A DNA stretch of 64,000 bases, taken from assembly GCA_965637545.1 (NCBI GenBank), contig OZ281498.1, forward strand, positions 12,648,001 through 12,712,000, written 5' to 3'. Shown one piece after another: positions 416 to 18,000 of the stretch. Source of the DNA: Phallusia mammillata. Its lineage: Eukaryota. Position 1 is the stretch's first letter; the number at the start of each line of letters is the position of its first letter. The notes beneath the pieces were generated by a model. That model saw only the letters and a program-made list of their open reading frames with translations, was not told the DNA's origin and did not search any database. Both the position numbers and the translations under genes were made by a program.

Positions 416-853
416 ATCTGATGTGGTTTCGCTGATATGAAACCTCATAAAGCTGATACCAAATGTAATGAAGATTTAACGAGCTTTTAACAACAACCAA
501 ACTTTTATAAAAATAAGAGTAGTTTAGATTTTCTTTGCGTTTCCGGGTGTATTCCTTTCCGAAATTGGAAGAGTTAGCATTTAAAATGACGTAACAGGCG
601 TGATCGTGACATTACCAACCACAGTAACCACTGAAGCAGACTTAAAATCAATGGTCATGTAACAAATCGCATGTTTTGAATAAACAAGCGAAGAAATGAT
701 TCTATTTAAGGACCCAATGGTCTAAAAACTTAATCGATGCGCACTGGGTCTGTTCTGTAACCTATATCGCTTGTATGGAAATGTCTATTTTTTGTTAAAT
801 ATATTTGTCTTGTGTAGAACTTTGCTTAGTACTTGGAAGGTAAATTACTAAAA

Positions 854-3442
854 ATGGTTCTTCATCAACCAATATTATATTTTGAATGTGTTGATGCTGT
901 TTATGGAAGCTGCCGATCTCTGCCTCACAACAACAGGACTATGTACTGCTTGAATGCATGTGAACATATTCTTGGTTCAGTTCTTCGTCGCCATTGTGAC
1001 AGCAAGGGTAGAGAAAAGGTCCCTGCACAAACAGCTTTAATTCTGCATGAAATTGGACGTGTATACAGACTAAGAAGTCCTGACAAGATTAGTTTAATAA
1101 AAGCGGTTGTTCTGTTTAATGCCGCCCTTGTAAGGAAACCATCCAACGAGAATCAAATTAGAAACGATCTTTGTGAAATATGCTGTCACATTTTGGAACT
1201 TGCTGGTGCAAAACAAAAATCCGCCGATTTTACAATAGAAGTGAAAGCAATCAGTGAAAAAATGAAACAACTACGTAACTATGTTGCTGAAAACTTAATA
1301 CACTTAAAACCAGTTCATGAGTTGTGTTTGAATGAACCAAGAGCAGCAATCTTGGAGGATATTCAAAACCATCTAACATGTGGATATATTGATGCAATGA
1401 AACATATCATGGACTTTTGTGTCCACGCAATTGGAAGTCCTCCATGCGAGTATGCTTTGATTGGAATGGGGTCATTAGCAAAACGGGAAATAACGCCATA
1501 TTCAGATTTTGAAAGTTTCATTGTTTTGGAAGACCTAGACTATATTTCTGACGAATCCTATTCAGCGATCCTTAACTATTTTCGATGGACGGCGGTAATA
1601 TTTCAAATTGTTTTGGTTTGTATGGGTGAAACACTCACACGGTTTATGTGCATACGATCTCTTAACAACCCAACTCATCCTGGGGGTGATTGGTTTTATG
1701 ATGCTTTTACTCCATGTGGCATCTCCCCAGACGGTTTTGCCCCACAGGCAAGCAAAAATCCACTTGGGCGACAGGAAATGACTTTGGATAAACCTTGGAT
1801 AACTGAATTAATCAAACCGGTCAGTAAAATGCTTTTGTATTTGAAGCCACGACAAAACCTCAAGAATGGGTACCATCTTGCAGAAATGCTAACCCAGACA
1901 TGCTTTGTGGCTGGAAACAAAAATGTTTATGACAGCTATTGCGCAGGAGTGGAACAAGCATTTTTGCGATCAGACATGGATGCTGCAATAATGGAAATTG
2001 GCAAATATCTAAAACCTCTTCACACATTAACACGACTTCCGTCTGTACAAGACTTCAAGAAGTTTGACATGAAAAGAGTTATTTATCGAAGCACTACCTT
2101 GTTCATCTTGGCTATGAGAAGATTCTTTAAAGTTCGTGCTTTAGCATCATTTGATGTTGTCAGAGAGCTTGAGAGAAGACAAATTATTCCTTACAAATTT
2201 GCCCAAGATCTTGTATATGCTGTTGCGCTTGCATGCGAAGTTCGTCTTAAGATTTACAACCAACAAAACTCACAGGATGATCGGGTTGACACCATGAAAG
2301 ATAAAATGCAAACGACAATTGTATCAATAATGGGCAAGCAAGCTGCCATAATGTACTTTCGAATCGCCTGTCAGATTCAGCACTACATAGGAATTTTGAC
2401 AAATCGAATTCGAACAAGTGTTTCGTACAAAAAGGAAATATTGAAAGTTCAACTGACCGAGGTTTACATTCGCTACTCCCTGTGTCTTTATCAAGAAAGT
2501 TTGGAAATGTGTGATGTGTTTGGTTGGCTGACGAAAGAGCAATTCAAATGCGAGCCACAAATAATGTTTCTTGTTGGGTCGTGTTATTATAAACTTAAGG
2601 ACTACGACAAGGGATTACTGTTTCTGCAACGAGCAGAAGCAGACTTTGTGCCTGAAACTTCAGGAAACGACAAACTTTTGTGTCAAAAGATGATTATGCT
2701 TTGCTACGGGAAACAAGGAGTTGGGAACGTTGTAATTGAGAAGTTGTTCAAGAGCATCAAAACAATGATGGATCTCCCGGGCGAAAATTTAAACTTTTAC
2801 AAGACATTTTATATCAAAAAAGATGAACTTACCAATCGCAAAGACTTCATCAACCACCACGTTATTGCAAAACGCGAACATTTCTTTGGCAGCTGGTGTT
2901 ATAATATTCTAAGGGTCGATGAAGCTCTTGTGCACTTTGAACGTGAACTACAACTTCGATGCTTGCTCACATGCGACGCTTCAAGAGATAAATCTATTGC
3001 AGCTTGTCATCTAAGCATTGCTCTCTGTTTGGTTTTTAAAAACGAAATGCAGAGGGCTGTACCTCACATTAATGCATGCAGGAGCATTTATAAGGAACTG
3101 TGTTGGAAGGTTGGCATCAATAAACTATGTAAGGTGGAGTTTATTTTGGGCAGAACGTTCACGGCTCAAAAACTGCACCAATCAGCTTTGGATTGTTACA
3201 AGCGTGAGTTGCATTTTCGCAAGGAGATAGTAACAAATGAGGTTGACATCTATCCCTGGGATTTTCTAAGTCTTGGAACGTGCCATCTAAATATTGCTTT
3301 TGAAAGTTTTTACCTTAAAAAAGTTAAAGATAGCTATAGTCATGCCAAACAGGCTGAAGCGAATTACCTGCTGGCAAGGGTTCCTGATGCAATCTTGCAG
3401 GTTTGTCGGACTGTTATTCAAGCGAGCGAAGCACACTTGTAA
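854..3442 (+). CDS. Intronless nucleotidyltransferase (Pol-beta superfamily, GlnD/GlnE/DUF294-like) plus TPR repeat protein, copy A, 862 aa
   Basis: First ATG at 854 (the ORF track starts at TTG 833). Motif IGMGSLAKREITPYSDFESFIVL (~1460-1530) fits hGS-x10-DhE. A later GISPDG is a candidate third carboxylate. FDMKRVIYR...ASFDVVREL...ALACEVRLKIY resembles the helical substrate-binding domain following DUF294/GlnD NTases. TPR-like helices lie at the N-terminus (TALILHEIGRVY) and C-terminus (IAACHLSIALCL, FILGRTF, LSLGTCHLNIA). Confidence 0.85.
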   Translation: MVLHQPILYFECVDAVYGSCRSLPHNNRTMYCLNACEHILGSVLRRHCDSKGREKVPAQTALILHEIGRVYRLRSPDKISLIKAVVLFNAALVRKPSNENQIRNDLCEICCHILELAGAKQKSADFTIEVKAISEKMKQLRNYVAENLIHLKPVHELCLNEPRAAILEDIQNHLTCGYIDAMKHIMDFCVHAIGSPPCEYALIGMGSLAKREITPYSDFESFIVLEDLDYISDESYSAILNYFRWTAVIFQIVLVCMGETLTRFMCIRSLNNPTHPGGDWFYDAFTPCGISPDGFAPQASKNPLGRQEMTLDKPWITELIKPVSKMLLYLKPRQNLKNGYHLAEMLTQTCFVAGNKNVYDSYCAGVEQAFLRSDMDAAIMEIGKYLKPLHTLTRLPSVQDFKKFDMKRVIYRSTTLFILAMRRFFKVRALASFDVVRELERRQIIPYKFAQDLVYAVALACEVRLKIYNQQNSQDDRVDTMKDKMQTTIVSIMGKQAAIMYFRIACQIQHYIGILTNRIRTSVSYKKEILKVQLTEVYIRYSLCLYQESLEMCDVFGWLTKEQFKCEPQIMFLVGSCYYKLKDYDKGLLFLQRAEADFVPETSGNDKLLCQKMIMLCYGKQGVGNVVIEKLFKSIKTMMDLPGENLNFYKTFYIKKDELTNRKDFINHHVIAKREHFFGSWCYNILRVDEALVHFERELQLRCLLTCDASRDKSIAACHLSIALCLVFKNEMQRAVPHINACRSIYKELCWKVGINKLCKVEFILGRTFTAQKLHQSALDCYKRELHFRKEIVTNEVDIYPWDFLSLGTCHLNIAFESFYLKKVKDSYSHAKQAEANYLLARVPDAILQVCRTVIQASEAHL

Positions 3443-4351
3443 AGGTGTTGACGTTTTTTTGATACTTTTTAGAAACGTACAATGATCTTTTTATTGTCGG
3501 TCGACTTGACAAACATGTTTACAGGATTGTACGAACGGTTGCCAATGTGTTCACAGAAACGAATGAAAGCTAACATTTAGATATATACGTTAACTAGACA
3601 TGTTTCCAAAACCATAGGTTGTTTACTCCTGATCCACACTGTGGTAGCACTTTTTTCCTACTACGGTAGTTGTAGCATTACGGTCTTCCTAACAGCGTAA
3701 CTGCGTGGCTGGGTAACATAGCTGACAGGAAGTGATCAGGGCAGCATACCAACCAACAGGCTTATTAGTCTTGCTTGTGTTTTGGAAAAAGTTGTTATGA
3801 AGACTAATTTATGCACTTGTGCTTCTAAAATTTGTTGTACGTTAATATTCGTGATTCTGTTTATGTTTAACATAATTACGTAGTTAATAGAAAATAAATA
3901 AACATAAAATTCCGACAACGTTTCTTGGATTCTGGACCAATAAAGTCGCTCCAGTTTCCAATGTTGTTTTGCCTCATCGTGCACTAAACAAAGGGTTAGT
4001 TACTGTAAATGCAGGGTTTCTTTACTTAGTGTGTTTACTTCCACCTCCTGTGTATAAAATTAGGACTGGCTTGCAGGTTTTTGGCACCAATACGCGACGT
4101 CTTCCCGACGTCATTCGGCGCCAGTTTCACACAACTCTCTACTTTGTCAACGGTTTGATTTCAGCAACTGATATAGCTTTAGAGGGTATTGATAAAAAAA
4201 AACGATAGAAGTGGGGACAGGCATAATAGTAGTTACACAAACCAATTGGTTTTCCAGGTTTAAAATCAGATGGCAGTATTAATGTTTTTGTAATTTGCAA
4301 ATTTCAGCCGCTTGTAAAACTTTGTAGAAACAGTTTTGTGACAAAAAAACA

Positions 4352-5353
4352 ATGAATTTGCAAGCTTGCATTTTTCTCTGCTGCTGTTCACTGGAAGCAC
4401 AATTTCAACTTCCTTCATATAATGTGGACCAAGATCACATTACAATTAGTGGTTTCTCATCTGGAGGCTACATGGCAGTACAAATGCATGTGTCTTACTC
4501 GGCAACTTTTAGAGGCGTTGGAGTTATATCCGGGGGCCCATACCATTGTGCGTGGTCAGTTCCTGAAAGTGAACGTACATTCCCAGAGCTGGCCAATCCT
4601 CAAATTATCAACGTTACAAAAATTCAGGCAATAGCAGAAGGGCTATCAGAAAAAGGTCAAATCGATTCATTGGAACAACTTAAATCCACAAAAGTATTTT
4701 TGCTTGCTGGAAGCCTGGATACTTTAATTGTACCAGAAGTAGTGGAAAAAACAAGACAGTTCTACACCAAGTTTGTTAAAGACTCGAATATACATTTTGA
4801 AGAAATAAGAAGCGTGCACTGCTTTCCTACCATGAACTATGGTGCAGAATGCGAAGTCGATCACGTAAAGTTGATAAACAATTGTGCATACAATGCGGCT
4901 TTCAAGATTTTAAACCACATCGAGACGAATATTATTGAACCTCAAATGGAAACTACATCCACAGCACCACTTAGATTCAACATTAGTGAAACATTGTTAA
5001 CTTGGGTCAATCTGACAGCTATCGGTATGGACGAGATAGCTTATGTGTTTGTTCCTGACCAATGCAAATCACGGTCAATTAGATGTAAGCTGCACGTTGC
5101 ATTGCATGGCTGCACGCAAGGTGTATCAACCATCGGTGAGGACTATGTGCTTTATACTGGATATAACGAAGTTGCCGAAGCAAACAACATGATAATTTTG
5201 TATCCACAAGCAAAGATTATTCCAGATGTTAATCCATTTGGTTGCTGGGATTGGATGGGAACCACAGGTCCGTTATACGCAACTAAACAAGGGCCACAGA
5301 TACTAGTAATTATGAAACTTGTTCAACACCTAACTGGGATTACTATTTTGTAA
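4352..5353 (+). CDS. Secreted polyhydroxybutyrate (PHB/PHA) depolymerase-like serine hydrolase, extracellular type with N-terminal lipase box, intronless CDS, 333 aa
   Basis: Signal-peptide-like N-terminus MNLQACIFLCCCSLEA. Lipase box ITISGFSSGGYMAVQMHV. Candidate catalytic Asp (GSLDTLIVP) and His (SVHCFPT). Oxyanion motif LHVALHGCTQ, then ANNMIILYPQA and NPFGCWDW. This motif order matches fungal/bacterial extracellular PhaZ. AATAAA at 5403-5408. Confidence 0.88.
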   Translation: MNLQACIFLCCCSLEAQFQLPSYNVDQDHITISGFSSGGYMAVQMHVSYSATFRGVGVISGGPYHCAWSVPESERTFPELANPQIINVTKIQAIAEGLSEKGQIDSLEQLKSTKVFLLAGSLDTLIVPEVVEKTRQFYTKFVKDSNIHFEEIRSVHCFPTMNYGAECEVDHVKLINNCAYNAAFKILNHIETNIIEPQMETTSTAPLRFNISETLLTWVNLTAIGMDEIAYVFVPDQCKSRSIRCKLHVALHGCTQGVSTIGEDYVLYTGYNEVAEANNMIILYPQAKIIPDVNPFGCWDWMGTTGPLYATKQGPQILVIMKLVQHLTGITIL

Positions 5354-6103
5354 ATCATTCTCAGTTTCAGTCTGTAACATACAACCTGTGGCAGAATTTG
5401 TAAATAAATAATCGTCAATACAAAATTAGTGAAACCAAGGTAGTAACGTTAAATTGTTTTTTTGTGTAAACATTTTCCTTTAGATTTTATATAAATAATA
5501 AAATATGTCGACTTTTCTCCTGTTAGTCTATACAATTGAGTTGGGCCTCAGGGATGGAACACACAATGTAACATGCGAGAAACACAATATTTTGGTTTAG
5601 GACCACTGATAAACTCTAATTTTTGTCCACACAGTCATTTTTGTCACATGTTTTTTACATGACAATAAAAATGACCTGTATATACTTTTACAATGGTGCC
5701 TTTGTTGGAATGCTTATTGATTGCCAACTATAATTGCCGAAAATACAACGAGAAACGTGTCATACGGAAAATTTCCAACCTTATTTTCAACTTGTTTACA
5801 CTGTTACTGATCGAAGTTTTGTTGCTGCAACTTTGATAGGCGCAATAAATGTAGCTTAAATTTGTGTTGATGCTCCACAGATAGTAAAAAATATGACCAA
5901 GATAGGTTTGGTTTATATTTTAACATACAAAAGTATATACTTACCGATAGGCCGTTGCAATAGGGACTTGTGATGCAGTTTTGTTTAAAGAAAAAAAAAT
6001 AAGGACTTGTTTCTGGAAAAATAAACTTCGGTAGAAGAAGATCAAACGCCTAATTTTTATTTTTAAACTTGTTTCCGTCTTTTTTCTCTAATTTAGTGTA
6101 GCG

Positions 6104-6822
6104 CAGGGTTCTTCAACCTTTTTAGCTCAATCGCCCGCTTTCCAAGGCACGGACTCCTAATCGCCCCCCTATGAGATTGTTATTTGTATAAAATTTCGGC
6201 CTTTTGAGCAGATTTGGGTGGTTAGATTCACCTAGCACAGCGAAAGCTTCAGTCAACACCTAATTTAATTGCTACTACAACACGCAAGGTCCATTTCACG
6301 CAATTCAAACGCATCTGAGAACAATTTGTTACATCATAGACAAAACAATATTACGATTATGCGCAAACAATCGCTTTCTTTTGTTGACAACAATAGAGCA
6401 TTACTCGGCAGAGATGAATCCTAAATGATGCAAATACTTCGCGGTTTGGGGAGCGCTTGTAGGCCTTTAGGTAGAGTAAAAGCGAAAAAAGTTCAAGGTG
6501 AAGATTGTTGCCGTTGTATTTGAAAGTATGGGCTGTCACTATACATAGCCGCAATAAAGTGTCCCATGTGGCTAATTAAATGCCTAACCTTGGTTTCGAG
6601 ATCACAATGTATTCAAATAGCAGCACGTTTAATCTAATGTGTCCATTGTCCCTGGTGTTTGTTTGCAAGACGAATTATATCTACTTGTAAGTCAAAGTTA
6701 GCTGAGTCTCACAGTTATGGTACATATTTATACAATCAGTAATGTTGAAATCACCCTCTTTTGAAGTTAAATCGTCCCCCAACTTCCAAAATTGTCACCA
6801 TCGCCCCCGTTGAAGAACCCTG
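6104..6822. mobile_element. Non-autonomous hAT (Charlie/Buster-like) DNA transposon / MITE, 719 bp
   Basis: 14-bp TIRs CAGGGTTCTTCAAC / GTTGAAGAACCCTG; 8-bp TSD gtgtagcg (6096-6103) vs gtctagcg (6823-6830), 7/8 match; repeated subterminal ATCGCCC motifs. Confidence 0.9.
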
Positions 6823-6928
6823 GTCTAGCGTGACTTCAAACAACATGGTAAAAGCATTTTTTTTAAAATAAAGAGAACATCGAAGCATACTTTTTAGACG
6901 ACAAAAATTTTAATCTATTGAAACTACT

Positions 6929-9497
6929 TTACAAACGAGTTTTACATGTTTCAATAACAGTCCGACAACCCTGTAAGATTGCATCAGGAACGTTTGCAAG
7001 CAGATAATTTGTTTCAGCCTGTTTAGCATGACCGAAGCTATCCTGAAACATATTCAGAAAATAGTACTCAAAGGCGATGTTTTGGTGACATGTTCCAAGA
7101 TTTACCAAATCTGTTGGAAATGCATCAATATTTTTTGTTGTTTATCTCCTTACGAAAACGTAACTCACGCTTGTAACAATCCAAGGCTGATTGGTGTAGT
7201 TTTTGCGTCGAAAACGTTCTACCCAAAATAAGCTCCACCTCACATCGTTTATTGATGCCAACCTTTTTACACTCCTTATAAATGTTTCTACATGCATTAA
7301 TGTGAGGTACAGCCCTCCGCATTTCGTTTTCGAAAACCAAACAGCGAGCGATGCTTAAATGACAAGCTGCAATAGATTTATCTCTTGAAGTGTCGCATGT
7401 GAGCAAGCATCGAAGTTGTAGTTCACGTTCAAAGTGCACAAGAGCTTCATCGAACTTGAAAAAATCATAACATCAGCTGCCAAACCAATGTTCGCGTTTT
7501 GCAATAACGTGGTGGTTAATGAAGTCTTTGCGATTGGTAAGTTCATCTCTATTTGAAATAAAGTTTTTAAAAATTCCAACTTCCCTGTGATACACCATCA
7601 TTTTTTTAAGACAGTTGCTTGAATTTTCTTGATCTCCTTGTTTCTCATAACAAAGCATAATCATGTTTTGACACAAAAGTTTGTTGTTTCCTGAAGTTTC
7701 AGGCACAAAGTCTGCTTCGGCTCGTTGCAGGAAAAGTAATCCCTTGTCGTAGTCCTTAAGTTTATAATAACACGAACCAACAAGAAACACTATTCGTGGT
7801 TCGCATTTGTACTGCTCTTTCGTAAGCCAACCAAACACATCACAAATTTCCAAACTTTCTTGATAAAGGCACAGGGAGTAGCGAATGTAAACCTCGGTCA
7901 GTTGAACTTTCAATACTTCTTCTTTGTACGAAACACTTTTTCGAATTCGATTTGTCAAAATTCCTATGTAGTGCTGAATCTGACAGGCGATTCGAAAGTA
8001 CATTATGGCAGCTTGTTTGCCCATTATTGATACAATCGTCGTTTGCATTTTATCTTTCATGGCGTCAACCCGATCATCCTGTGAGTTTTGTTGGTTGTAA
8101 ATCTTAAGACGAACTTCGCATGCAAGCGCAACAGCATATGTAAGATCTTGAGCAAATTTGCAAGGAATAATTTGTCTTCTCTCAAGCTCTCTGACAACAT
8201 CAAATGATGCTAAAGCACGAACTTTAAAGAATCTTCTCATAGCCAAAATGAACAAGGTAGTACTTCGATAAATAACTCTTTTCATGTCAAACTTCTTGAA
8301 GTTTTGAACAGAGGGAAGTCGTGTTAATGTGTGAAAAGTTTTCAGATCGTTGTTTACCTCAGTTAAAACAGCATCCATGTTTGAATGAAGAAATGCTTGT
8401 TCCACTCCTGTGCAATAGCTGTCATAAACATTTTTGTTTCCAGCCACAAAGCATGTCTGGGTTAGCATTTCTGCAAGATGGTATCCATTCTTGAGGTTTT
8501 GTCGTGGCTTCAAATACAAAAGCATTTTGCTGACAGGTTTGATTAATTCAGTTATCCAAGGTTTATCCGAAGTCATTTCCTGTCGCCCAAGTGGATTTTT
8601 GCTTGCCTGTGGGGCAAAACCGTCTGGGGAGATGCCACATGGAGTAAAAGCATCATAAAACCAATCACCCCCAGGATGGGTTGGGTTGTTAAGCGATCGT
8701 ATGCACATAAACCGCGTGAGTGTTTCACCCATAGAAACCAAAACAATTTGAAATATTACCGCTGTCCATCGAAAGTAGTTAAGGATCGCTAAATAGGATT
8801 CGTCAGAAATATAGTCTAGGTCTTCCAAAACAATAAAACTTTCAAAATCTGAATATGGCGTTATTTCCCGTTTTGCTAATGAACCCATTCCAACCAAAGC
8901 ATACTCACATGGAGGACTTCCCATTGTGCGGACACAAAAGTCCATGATATGTTTCATTGCGTCAGTATATCCACATGTAAGGTGGTTTTGAATATCCTCT
9001 ATAATTTTTGTTTCTGTCGTCTGTTCTTTCAAACACAGCTCATGCAGCGACTGTAAGTGTTTAGCAACATAGTTGCGTAGTTGTTTCATTTTTTCACTGA
9101 TTACTTTCACTTCTATTGTAAAATCGGCGGATTTTTGTTTTGCACAAGCAAGTTCCAAAACATGACAGCATATTTCACGAAGATCTTTTCTGATTTGTTT
9201 CTCGTTGGATGGTTTCCTTACAAGGGCGGCATTAAACAGAACAACCGCTTTTATTAAACTAATCTTGTCAGGACTTCTTAGTCTGTAAACACGTCCAATT
9301 TCATGCAGAATTAAAGCTGTTTGTGTAGGGGCCTTTTCTTTACCCTTGCTGTCACAATGGCGACGAAGAACTGAACCAAGAATATGTTCACATGCATTTA
9401 AGCAGTACATAGTACTGTTGTTGTGAGACAGAGATCGGCAGCTTCCATAAACAGCGTCGATGCATTCAAAATATAGAATCGGTTGGTGGAGAACCAT
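6929..9497 (-). pseudogene. NTase-TPR paralog, copy B: truncated or pseudogenised (open 9497-7473, 674 aa; relic C-terminus continues to 6929)
   Basis: ATG at 9497 aligns with the ATG of copy A. In-frame TGA at 7473-7475 where A has TGG (HWFGS*CYDF vs HFFGSWCYNI). The frame then continues (VHFERELQLRC...) until a +1 frameshift near 7135-7145, after which IDAFPTDLVNLGTCHQNIAFEYY...CRTVIETCKTRL* ends at TAA 6929-6931, collinear with the end of A. Confidence 0.85.
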
Positions 9498-9540
9498 GTC
9501 TAATGCAACAGGCAATATATTTCCAAGTTTCACATATATT

Positions 9541-9680
9541 TTGTGCTCTGCCGCTGTAATTTTAAAATCAAATCCATACCAAACACAAAACCTCCCTGTG
9601 TACAGATCAAACCTACGTAGCGACTGTTTCCGCAACGTAAGTCATTATTTAAACCCACGTATTATTTTGTCACAGTTGTA
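9541..9680 (-). promoter_or_regulatory. Upstream element of NTase-TPR copy B, homologous to 13245-13385 (candidate core promoter/5' UTR)
   Basis: Collinear identical blocks shared with 13245-13385: acaaaacct, cctgtgtacag (9595-9605), actgtttccgcaacgtaa (9623-9640), ttattttgtcaca (9662-9674). Regulatory function is inferred from position only. Confidence 0.55.
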
Positions 9681-10528: not shown

Positions 10529-12838
10529 TCAACACAAATAGGACAATAGAAGAGACAGAAACTCGGCGATAATCTCTTGTGAATGAATGTCTTCCTGAGT
10601 TCTTATGGTGGTAATTTCCCATGTGTCTATAAACGTTACATACGAAATATCGGCAAACATTTCGCGCATAATCTGGTCAAACCGATACAAATACCATTCA
10701 CTTGGCAAAAACGTCATTAAACGTTTAAACCTAATTCCTGTTCGCAGGAAAAACCGCACCCCCGAATTTCTGTCCTATAGATCCTTTATGGCAACAAGCC
10801 GTTGAATAAAACCCGATGGATCATAGAGGGCAAAGTGGGCACCAATATTCAACACTACCAAAAAATCACCTGAAGAAGGCATTCCATCCAAAGTGTCGAC
10901 TATATATGGCTTGCTACCTGGTGGACCGGGATTGTGCAATGGCAAACCATGAGCTTTGTAATAAATTGTAATGTTATTTTTGTCATGTCGACCTTTGCGT
11001 GGTTGTGACCAGGCAACCGAATTATCAGGTCCAGTGTCTGTAAGTTTCATTTCAGCGACTAGATATGAATACCACTGTCTCATTGTGGAATCTCCAATTA
11101 AGTAGATTGTTCGGTTGGCCAGACAATCCATTGCGTTGGTCAAATTGTGATATGCCATGTTACATCGCAAGAACTTCCATTTTCCATCCAAGTAATAACC
11201 ACTTGGAAGATTGCTTGACGCTCTTCGAATAAGTTTTTTACACGGCGGTCGATCCGGGGAAGAATTGTCTGTTTGTTTGCTGGCGAAGATGAATTGACTT
11301 TGAATTGGCATTTCTCGGTTAATCTTTGTATTGTATAGTTCTTTACGGGCTGGAAATCTTGATGGTATTGTTATCCTTTTCGACCAAACTAAGTTTGTCG
11401 GGCAAGTCTCGTTGATGAGTTTGCGACACTGCCATGACGCGCCAACGTGTGGGTTTGAAAATTCGCACACATCGGAAACACTGTCGCTAAACAAAACAAA
11501 GCAGTTTAAAACAGATTTTTTACAGGAACAATTATGACATTATGCAATCCGTTTTAAGCAACAGATAACACGCAAAATTAAAGGCATTTTTTAAAAAATT
11601 CTTACAATGGTACTTGTTTGTTGTTCACTTTTATTTCACACATTATCATTATATTTTCTTAACCGCTCTTACAACTTTTGTTTGGTTTTTGCATTAGTCC
11701 ATTTCTTTAGTTTTCGTTTTATTACTGCCGTATATTTTCGCTCTTGTTACTTTTGATTCAATTTTTTTTAGTTTATACCTCGTTAAAACTGTTGACCACC
11801 GGCGAAACGTAACAAAACAAATTCGTATTTTACAGAGTTTTTTAATTTCAAAGCATCAAACATCTGGTAAATGAGACAAATCGAGATTTACTTTTAAATT
11901 ATAAACCTCACGTAAACAGTTGTTTGTCTTGAATTTTCTTTTGTTGACTTAGTTATAAATTGTGTCAAACTTCTTTGATCCGAAAATCTGTAGCATTCAA
12001 TACCTTAGATGCACGTCACATTCCACTTTGCTCCCTGAAGGATAAGTACCCAGAAACCTGACGATATCAGCAGATCTGGAATTTGTTCTCAACGCAAGGT
12101 CAACCACAGCCTCGCTAGGATGTACAAGCTCTACATCAAGTTTACAGAGACCGGGCCACGGCATAACAGTACTCCAAGTGTATTTCCCATTGGCGTGGTC
12201 CAAAATGTCAACATATATTCCATCTTGCACATTCGAATTATTTCTCATCAATCTGCGAAAATTAGAAAATCAACTTAAACCCCTTTATGATTTATTTGAA
12301 CAGGTCTTTATTGTGTTTTCAGGGTTGACCTTTTGCGTAATAAAGGTGTACAAACAGATTTTGCAAAATGTATTACGTCTTGAATGACTTTTAAACAAAT
12401 AATGGGTCAACGGTTTAGGTTTCAAAAACGTTCTGTATACCTTGCTCTAAAGTAGTCACCACCATACATTTTGTCATTACCATTGTAATCTCTGGCTTGG
12501 ATTTCACCTGTCACTTTTTCACCGACAGTACATGTGCTTTTGTCCACAGTGACCAAGACATGACGTGGGTCTGTTGACGTAGTTATTGGTAAATTCATTT
12601 TAATTTTCCCGGATTCAATGTTGTGTAGAAATTGCTGAATCCCAGGCAAGTATTTCCTCCATTTATAACTTCCAAAAATATTTTTTCGTTGAACGTCAGG
12701 CATCTTATTGCCACTGCTAGTCCAACCGGTGAAATATTTGGATTTAATCACATTCGTGTACTTCCAGTATATGGTTGATAGAAGCATCATTGCAGTGAAA
12801 AGAGTCACGAAACGCATGAAAATTATTCGAACTCTCAT
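10529..12838 (-). pseudogene. NXPE: NXPE family (neurexophilin/PC-esterase, SGNH-like) gene with one in-frame stop; 3 coding exons
   Basis: Exons 12838-12441, 12252-12004 and 11486-10529, with GT-AG boundaries and consistent phase (1605 nt). N-terminal TM anchor, then Ig/filamin-like ARDYNGNDKMYGGDYFRAR and DHANGKY...LVHPSEAV. GDSTMRQW motif; C-terminal IDTWE...EDIH...LLSYLC*. In-frame TAG at 10775-10777 (AIKDL*DRNSGVRFFLRT). Confidence 0.85.
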
Positions 12839-13244
12839 TTTGATTTCTTTTCCTGAAACAAAATAACAAGTAACAACCACCGTTAAGGTTTACTGCAAAA
12901 ACTGCTGCTAAGTCAGTCTGTACTTTTTGTATGATTTCTTTAAGCATCCTTATCTCACGAAACAAACAAAATAAAAATATTGTTTTCCTTCACTATAGCC
13001 GAGGTATAGTTTAATGCAACATACAGTATAAACACCATTTTCAGGCTGCTTCAAATGGTAAGTCTAACTGAATAAACACACACACAAAATGTGTGTTTCA
13101 TTTAGTTCCAATAATTTTAATCAAATAAAACAGAAGCCGGAAAACCTGATTTTAACTGTTATCATAACACATTCAAAACAACGGAGTCGGTTCATGGAAA
13201 ACCATCTCTAACCCAACCGATAGTAAACTGCACCCTGCAGTTAA

Positions 13245-15067: not shown

Positions 15068-18000
15068 ATGAATTCACACAATATTTTTGGTCAACTTTGG
15101 GCTAACAGTTTGGTGTACTTCAGCCTTGTTCATATGTTTGTCATTGTTTCTGCAAACGTTGGTAAGTAATTTTAATTGTTCATCTTGACAAGATTTGTAA
15201 TAGTAGTAAGCTACAACAGCTAGTAACCATGTTATGTTGATAAGTGAAATAGTTTATAGGGCATACACTGAATGCACTTTAGTTATGCTTGTGGTACTGT
15301 GGTGTGTTAAATCAATTAAGCGTTACATGCAAACTAATGGCAATTCAAACTAACATTGGGTTCTTGCCTCGTTTGAATACCGATCTTATGGCTAAACTTT
15401 TTTGGCAAAGAATTCCATTTGTGTCAACAAATTGAATGTAAGAATGTAAGGGTAAATGAATATAAAATCCGTATGTTTACTTTTTTCGTGTGACCCTTTC
15501 TGATGTGATCTTTAATTTGCAGAAGAGTTGTACGATACGAAATCTCGAACAAGCGACCTGCTGTGGACGAAATATCCGGAAAGCGGCGGTGTAAGTTTAT
15601 TTGTTGTGGAAAAACGTATTACTCGCTGTAGCTTTACCCATGGGCGGGCCGCGTTCCACAGAACAACATGCGGCGTGAGAATCGACTCTATTACCACGCG
15701 GCATATCATTAAGTTAATTAGAGCAGCAAATTTGTGGAAACGGACACTAGCCGAGACGAACTTTCTTGTGGACGCGCATTTGTTGTTTCGAAACAATTAA
15801 ATGGTGTCATAGATTTCTAATGTTACTAATTAAAGACATAAACTATGCTGGACTTCAAAGATGCAATGTTTTACAATCGAATACAATTGTAATACATTTT
15901 TTTACAATTCACGCAATATCATGTGAATCTTTCTTTTAGTGTGTCGCCAATATAAGAAATAGAAATACCATGGTGCCTTAGATTGATCACACTTTTTTCC
16001 CTACTAGTGGGAAGAAGTAACCGGGTTGAGTTTGGAACGGGATTCAATTCGATATCACCAGGTTTGCAACGCGGTTACCAACCCAAGCAATTGGATACGA
16101 TCTCCCTACATTGAATCCAAGTAAGCTCATTTGCTACGACACTGGCGACTCTGGCCGACGCTTTGTTTACGATTTGTGCTTCCGTCCGCTCTAGATAACA
16201 GCCTGACACTTGGTTTTATTGGCTGTCAAAAGAGGTCTTGCACCGGACGAATTACTGTGTCATGTTTGCTTGGTTTAGTTCGATCTTCGATGTGGCTAAG
16301 AATTATTTTCAGAATTCTAATCTTATACAAAAATACCTTTTACATAATTTTCATTATTTTAAGTCCACTTTATAATGTAAAGCAACTTTTCATTTTGTGG
16401 AAATGCTGCTTCCTAGTTTGCGTTTTAAGAATGCCATTATTGTTCGGGTCAGATTTCGAGAATTTATAGTGTTACTAAAATACCGTGTATAATTTTACTG
16501 GTGTTACTAAGTCCGTGTAGGGTAGGGGTGTCCAAACTGCGACCCGCGGGCCAAATGCGGCCCCCGACGGCATTTTAAGTGGCCCGCGGCTGTTTTTTTT
16601 AAAATTGTTTTGCGTATGGCCCGCCATAGTTTGGAACTTTGGATTAAGTTTTTGGGTTTTAGCGATGCTACATCACGCAAAAGCTTTCCATGGAACTTCA
16701 TTTACCCGCGGTAAAAAGGAAGGTGCTGACTCAACAAAATCACAAAATTTCCTTAAATCCTGTAAATTTGTGTCTTAATTCTGAAAAAACGTTGGCCCGC
16801 GGGCATCTTTACCTGGTAAAATTTGGCCCCCGTTAAAAAAAGCTTGGACACCCCTGGTGTAGGGTGTTAAAATGCATTCCTGTGCCAACCTACTCTTTTT
16901 TTCAGGGGTGCGAAACGAGCTTATATTGACGTGGAGTTTTCTATGGTAAAATGTGAAGAGTTGCAAACTGGATGTAGCGAAACTTTTAATCTCTTCTACT
17001 ACGAGTCGGATACCGATCAGTCTTCTAGCACTTTCCCACCATGGAGGGAAAACCCGTATGTGAAGATTGACACGATAGCAGCAGGTGAACGGTTCAGCAA
17101 CATCGAGTTCAGCAGAGAAGAAGGAATGAACCGCAAAACTTGGACACTAGGTCCGCTTACCAGGTACGGAAATTTTATCACAATTTTCCTGTTCTTCCAG
17201 CTTTTTTGTTATAGTTGTTCTGGAAATTGTTACATTAAAATAAATAAAACGTTAATAAATTGGAAAGAACGAACTGTTTTGATTTGAAGCACCTCCATTA
17301 AAAGCACTGTTTAGCATTTCCACTGCATAAAAAAAACTGTTTTTAGTCCTGTAGGTAGGAAACATTAGAGCAGGTATTATATATTGATTGTATGTTTCCA
17401 TTCATGTTCCATCGATTGTTGACCACCAGGCCCATTATGTCTCAAAATGACGGTATTCCAACAGGCGCGGGTTTTATCTGGCAGCTGAGGACAAGGGGGC
17501 TTGCATGTCGTTAATGAGAGTGCGCGTCTATTCTTATTATTGCCCGAATGTGACAAACTCGTTGGCCAAGTTTCCTCGAACTGTTGCTGGTAACGACGTC
17601 GCTTCTCTGGTGGAAGTTCCGGGAAAATGTGTCCAGTATGCCAACTCCACTGCATTGGAAGGTAAAGTGTCAAATTTTGTTAATTCCAATACAAAATGAT
17701 TCATTAGCTCAAAATATTACCCATGTTGCCTAATAAATGAATTCATAAAAATTGGTTGTATCTAAAAACTAAACATCGGATTGTTTCTTATTTAGCATCC
17801 TTGCTTTGTGTAAATGCTTTGCCAGCAGCTAACGTTACAACGTACAGTAACCCATGAAGCAATAATGACCTCTGCTATCGGCAATTATACTCACAATCAC
17901 ACGGCCTTCCCTTTTCATCTAACAGCACCTCGTTATTACTGCAACAGCAACGGCGAATGGAAGGTCCGCACTGGAGTGTGTCACTGCAAGCCGGGTTATC

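Follow-up and report, generated by a model that had tools for sequence, protein, structure and literature searches.

An intron-free PHA depolymerase gene in the ascidian Phallusia mammillata: a likely retrocopy with a predicted role in digesting bacterial polyester

How does an animal come to carry an intron-free gene that looks like a microbial PHB depolymerase, and what would the animal do with it? The question is raised by a single locus in a 64,000-nucleotide stretch of the Phallusia mammillata genome (the window; the gene and its product are referred to as the window gene and the window protein). The reading we favor, at a probability of roughly two in three, is that the gene is derived from a retrocopy and encodes a predicted secreted digestive enzyme that would cut the ester bonds of bacterial PHB-type polyesters.

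The assignment to a family is clear-cut. The open reading frame starts with an ATG at 4352, runs without internal stops, and its stop codon ends at 5353. Its product scores 304.4 bits against the NCBIfam model NF050059 (type-2 extracellular scl-PHA depolymerase; cut-off 280), covering 305 of 305 model positions with an E-value of 8.7e-91. The type-1 depolymerase model gives 91.4 bits, under its cut-off of 150, and Pfam PF10503 gives 21.2, just under its cut-off of 23. The labels of type-1 depolymerase, mcl depolymerase, feruloyl esterase and generic esterase were all rejected on score. In the window protein, the lipase-box Ser36 precedes the oxyanion Cys254, and this is the order that defines type 2, where the lipase box lies ahead of the oxyanion-hole cysteine (accessible text of PMC13642032). 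The features of the gene are as follows.

4352–5353, forward strand: single-exon coding sequence of 333 amino acids, type-2 extracellular PHA depolymerase family (circularly permuted alpha/beta hydrolase), from reading frame, profile, alignment and model
4352–4399, forward strand: probable short signal peptide, approximately residues 1–16, inferred from hydropathy and position, with low pLDDT at residues 1–16
4451–4465, forward strand: lipase box GFSSG (residues 34–38) with the nucleophile Ser36, from alignment (Ser in 215 of 225 other rows)
4547–4600, forward strand: loop after Cys66 (residues 66–83), without the second cysteine that is kept in 216 of 228 aligned rows, from alignment
4718–4720, forward strand: catalytic Asp123, in GSLD, from alignment (Asp in 224 of 225 other rows)
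4817–4819, forward strand: catalytic His156, in VHCFP, from alignment (His in 223 of 225 other rows)
5105–5113, forward strand: HGC motif (residues 252–254) with the oxyanion-hole Cys254, 3' of the lipase box as in type 2, from alignment
5240–5263, forward strand: GCWDW (residues 297–301), in which Trp301 equals the fungal W307 (ester recognition), followed by Met302 and Thr304, from alignment
4320–5855, forward strand: public contig from run X4, 1536 nt with 8 differences, spanning the coding sequence and 500 nt downstream, from read contigs
5403, 5497, 5664 and 5844, forward strand: AATAAA signals 3' of the gene

The closest solved relatives, at an E-value of 1e-45 by sequence and 34% identity, are two entries of the PHB depolymerase from Penicillium funiculosum (2D80 and 2D81). 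An AlphaFold2 model of the window protein, built from a 14-row alignment (pLDDT 83, pTM 0.87), superposes on them in Foldseek with a TM-score of 0.83, an rmsd of 2.7–2.8 Å and an E-value of 9e-32, and the next distinct entry reaches a TM-score of 0.29–0.30. S36, D123, H156, C254 and W301 align with S39, D121, H155, C250 and W307 of the fungal enzyme (numbered as chain number +20), and the catalytic roles of the fungal residues are covered in the accessible parts of two reviews (PMC5445757, PMC9878459). By analogy with the family, Ser36 would attack the ester while Asp123 and His156 relay the proton, the backbone amides of Ser37 and Cys254 would hold the oxyanion, and Trp301 would position the ester, such that a single domain binds the polymer via its own crevice and cuts the chain. 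Neither alignment nor structure model revealed a separate substrate-binding domain in the window protein, and the fungal enzyme has none either. Bacterial type-2 extracellular scl-PHA depolymerases share its catalytic domain, above the curated cut-off; many of them, however, also carry Fn3 linkers and C-terminal domains (rows of 465–608 amino acids), and the window protein has neither. These data bear out much of what an earlier note had read from the DNA, namely the family (by profile and by fold), the motif set of extracellular PHB depolymerases (GFSSG, Asp123, His156, HGC and GCWDW), the single domain, and a coding sequence without introns, the last through end-to-end alignment with homologs. 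As for the leader, it is short and lacks a basic N-region, with a best 8-residue hydropathy of 2.86. Judged by hydropathy only, a signal peptide is plausible.

The window gene belongs to an animal PHA depolymerase (PHAD) family that has already been described, as the earlier note had anticipated in remarking on animal homologs. Zeidler et al. 2026 report 195 PHA depolymerases from 66 animal species in nine phyla, and show degradation of PHB and PHB/PHV for enzymes from Olavius, Amphimedon, Lumbricus and Folsomia, with conversion of denatured PHB to 3-hydroxybutyrate for homologs of four animal species (accessible text of PMC13642032). The assayed members in that text are thus those of two annelids, a sponge and a springtail, with no tunicate. 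The animal proteins share with the window protein the type-2 motif order, the triad, the oxyanion cysteine, a single domain of about 330 amino acids and an N-terminal leader; the Olavius gene, by contrast, has ten exons and nine introns where the window coding sequence has none (PMC13642032, same text). Supplementary Table 2 of that paper, as far as accessible, lists both Ciona proteins, including F6Q4K1, together with the Styela protein matched here, and the Ciona ortholog of the window protein is predicted there to be secreted, with a score of 0.94. It is further stated in the accessible text that the chordate sequences follow the organismal phylogeny, and inheritance from an animal ancestor is inferred with weak deep support (43.8%). 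For the window protein, we would picture secretion into lysosomes or the lumen of the gut, and there the PHB set free from lysed food bacteria would be broken down to 3-hydroxybutyrate. The dietary role put forward in the earlier note fits this picture and is also the interpretation published for the whole animal family (PMC13642032, same text); for the window protein it is a prediction. If the enzyme is active, chordate filter feeders would be able to tap a bacterial storage polyester, and it could act on PHA bioplastic particles as well.

The paralogy of the gene within ascidians is central to its origin. Two genome searches each returned the same three depolymerase loci in the assembly. First, the window gene. 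Second, a copy 9 kb upstream of it on the opposite strand, head to head (L006 4337–5300, reverse strand, contig C5), which is likewise intron-free and identical at 191 of 288 aligned residues. This L006 copy carries a 50-nt frameshifting deletion and a Tyr in place of Cys66, and its sequence marks it as a decayed local duplicate. Since synonymous sites between the two are saturated (pS 0.75, dN 0.24), no dN/dS value is given for the pair; the low dN next to saturated dS suggests that the copy was functional for long before it broke. Third, a paralog on another contig (G000:C7, L008 6459–8593, reverse strand), with nine coding exons, eight of eight introns bounded by GT-AG, and 334 amino acids without a stop. 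This C7 paralog is 39% identical to the window protein over 330 residues and identical in its catalytic residues.

The same three loci can be placed with respect to Ciona. The best match of the window protein is Ciona intestinalis XP_078493381, at 46% identity (top of 107, and top of 4724 among 1.84 billion representatives), followed by Styela, mollusc, echinoderm and hemichordate proteins. The Ciona protein (LOC100181563; F6Q4K1 falls in the same 90% cluster) is also the nearest member of the published animal PHADs. The Styela clava protein P0115 (611 amino acids) has a complete depolymerase domain that is joined through a Thr-rich linker to a second domain truncated at its C-terminus, and may be either a fused gene model or a genuine tandem protein. 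In all four trees built, the window gene joins ascidian proteins. A FastTree of 82 rows, which the L006 copy entered with 144 residues (its whole length was used in the later trees), supports the ascidian node at 0.997 and the animal node at 0.956, and a quick IQ-TREE run on 38 rows gives SH-aLRT values of 99 and 95 for the same two groups. With 228 rows, FastTree unites the window gene, the L006 copy and Ciona at 0.998, with 0.65 for the ascidian node. A careful IQ-TREE analysis of 29 rows, for which 12 of the 38 were dropped and 3 added, places the window gene and the L006 copy with Ciona LOC100181563 (Ciona B) at 100/98 and the C7 paralog with Ciona LOC100176456 (Ciona A), its ortholog, at 99/95. 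In this tree, the 6 ascidian rows together form a single group with a support of 94/85, which recurs in 99% of 200 bootstrap trees; the animals as a whole do not form a supported group in it. Ascidians, therefore, carry two old PHA depolymerase paralogs, and since Ciona has an ortholog of each, the duplication predates the split from Ciona. The newly described animal PHADs are thereby extended to an ascidian paralog pair. What is added here is likely the two-paralog history in ascidians, the probable retrocopy origin and the altered crevice; the two ascidian paralogs, the intron loss and the crevice changes are not discussed in the accessible text of PMC13642032, and a literature search found no other study of an ascidian depolymerase among the matches listed.

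Does the window protein still do what its family is known for? Compared with the P. funiculosum enzyme, it is without the 12-residue insertion after the PQ..IPD stretch, without the second loop cysteine and without an aromatic residue equal to W310. The loop cysteines of the fungal enzyme reportedly form a disulfide, as Hisano is said to have described in 2006. Of the 45 columns conserved to 85% or more in the 228-row alignment, 4 are altered in the window protein, besides the missing cysteine; residues 69–76 of the loop concerned are modeled with low confidence. Met302 and Thr304 stand where 204 and 208 of the 225 other rows, respectively, have an aromatic residue, and Ile211 replaces a Gln found in 98% of rows. 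The Ciona ortholog shares the loss of the loop cysteine, both aromatics and Gln211, whereas the C7 paralog keeps all of them. With the loop cysteine and the aromatics near Trp301 gone, the specificity may have shifted, and PHB may not be the best substrate of the window protein. One alternative, accordingly, accepts the same origin with a changed job, in which the window protein would act on soluble hydroxybutyrate oligomers, other polyesters or general esters, and the intron-rich copy would have kept the PHB role. The lineage is indeed fast-evolving, with long branches of 0.52 + 0.65 substitutions per site in the 29-row tree, and in the fungal enzyme it is the part beyond Pro281 that shapes the mouth of the crevice. 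However, the protein still scores above the NF050059 cut-off, the altered columns are few, Trp301 is retained, and even the fungal enzyme carries Val where Met302 stands. In addition, conservation of the substrate-binding sites is no more than partial among the animal enzymes, including those with activity (accessible text of PMC13642032). We therefore regard a changed job as rather unlikely, albeit the strongest of the alternatives.

An elaborated form of this idea is offered with equal reserve. It would make the window gene a second ascidian depolymerase born by retrocopying and kept by purifying selection from a time before the Ciona lineage split off. Its crevice would have been remodeled by losing the disulfide loop and the aromatic pair, and the enzyme would serve filter feeding alongside the ancestral one while accepting other substrates, for example oligomers, medium-chain PHA or synthetic polyesters. 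Of the two paralogs, the canonical C7 gene is the more likely to have kept the ancestral role in PHB digestion. It differs from the window gene by its 8 coding introns, the canonical pair of loop cysteines, a WWGY motif and a shorter branch. The paralog pair offers a ready comparison between a canonical and a changed crevice, and both proteins are short and easily expressed.

We then ask how the gene lost its introns. None of the eight intron positions of the C7 paralog is occupied in the window gene, and the two loci lie on different contigs (C5 and C7). With all eight introns gone and the copy on a different chromosome, an old retrocopy is the simplest reading, and the window gene likely arose in this way from an intron-containing ascidian gene. 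In this scenario, the gene would have duplicated before the Ciona lineage split off, with a single round of reverse transcription removing all eight coding introns; a local duplication would have followed later, and its product, the L006 copy, would then have decayed. Between 3400 and 7200, no poly(A) tract, target-site duplication or flanking direct repeat was found around the gene; such traces are expected to decay in old copies, but their absence keeps retroposition a likely rather than a proven mechanism. Retrogenes are known in Ciona, where 110 retrocopies and 96 retrogenes have been tabulated (accessible text of PMC5470649). Among the matches listed, no work on Ciona retrogenes names the Ciona ortholog of the window gene.

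Horizontal transfer offers another route: had the ascidian lineage independently acquired the gene long ago from a bacterium or protist, the missing introns would need no retroposition, and single-exon transferred genes have been reported in tunicates (PMC13390645, accessible text). In its favor, the deep nodes of the careful tree are unresolved, and AU tests reject neither a window lineage forced together with bacteria and fungi (p = 0.0675) nor one placed outside all other animal rows (p = 0.144). However, the trees consistently join the window gene to ascidian paralogs and not to bacteria, the next matches after the Ciona ortholog are ascidian or other animal proteins, and the survey of tunicate transfers (PMC13390645) does not once use the words depolymerase, hydroxybutyrate or esterase in its main text. 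On balance, we consider such a transfer improbable. The phylogeny that the earlier note had called for, of transfer against ancestral descent, is thus answered in part: the ascidian grouping stands, while a position outside the animal proteins is not rejected. Two of its suggestions found no support. The term 'microbial-type' sits badly with a gene whose closest relatives are ascidian and then other animal proteins, and the hint of transfer drawn from the missing introns is weakened by the intron-rich C7 paralog in the same genome, with which the window gene groups. The preferred retrocopy origin carries a more general message: an intron-free, 'microbial-looking' gene can be an animal's own making.

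Several observations show that the gene is the host's. The window sits on a 28 Mb contig of the 240 Mb assembly, and Eph-receptor, NXPE and sulfotransferase exons lie near the gene on this contig, which confirms the continuity with animal genes noted earlier. The base composition is host-like, with a GC content of 0.40 for both gene and window, and a GC3 of 0.35 against 0.35–0.38 in flanking genes. The coding sequence is also covered, with allelic differences, by public contigs that come from separate studies under one organism label, and one of these contigs runs 500 nt into the 3' flank. Given these data, the diverged sister copy 9 kb away with its saturated synonymous sites, and the existence of a Ciona ortholog, contamination by bacterial sequence or a chimeric join in the assembly, which had the absence of introns as its sole point in favor, is largely refuted and retains next to no probability.

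The same contigs provide a view of selection. They list 28 differences, 23 of them inside the coding sequence, where 17 are synonymous and 6 non-synonymous (pN/pS 0.10, p = 1.5e-7); leaving out the 6 differences of one low-depth contig, 13 synonymous stand against 4 non-synonymous. From this excess of synonymous variation, the window gene is under purifying selection. The stretch of the gene, or part of it, is contained in 14 of the 18 public runs listed, none of which is on record as RNA. The flanks at 3400–4308 and 5925–6227 have zero cover in the 4 runs compared, which, without a DNA-run control, is not evidence of transcription.

The neighborhood shows further features. Two convergent, intron-free genes flank the depolymerase, at 830–3442 (forward strand) and 6927–9641 (reverse strand); they are 89% identical over 2.6 kb and combine a weak nucleotidyltransferase match (DUF294, E-values of 3.5e-6 and 2.2e-7) with TPR repeats. 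The reverse-strand copy is interrupted by an in-frame TGA near 7473 and, further on, by a frameshift. Such a cluster of intron-free genes around the depolymerase may point to repeated insertion or duplication at this site. A short element at 6099–6827 has 19-nt inverted arms, and many contigs match its inner part and then continue into unrelated sequence, as for a MITE-like dispersed repeat. Tandem sulfotransferase genes are located upstream of the L006 copy (L006 1017–2278, forward strand; L007 9121–9937), and exons of an NXPE-family gene lie at 10775–12889 on the reverse strand (PF24536, E-value 4.6e-28). Positions 16871–63660 on the forward strand carry exons from at least two Eph receptor genes and look like a tandem Eph cluster: exons for the ligand-binding domain lie near 16.9 kb and, judged by sequence likeness, near 50.0 kb, with Fn3 at 35.1 kb and the kinase at 39.1–39.7 kb.
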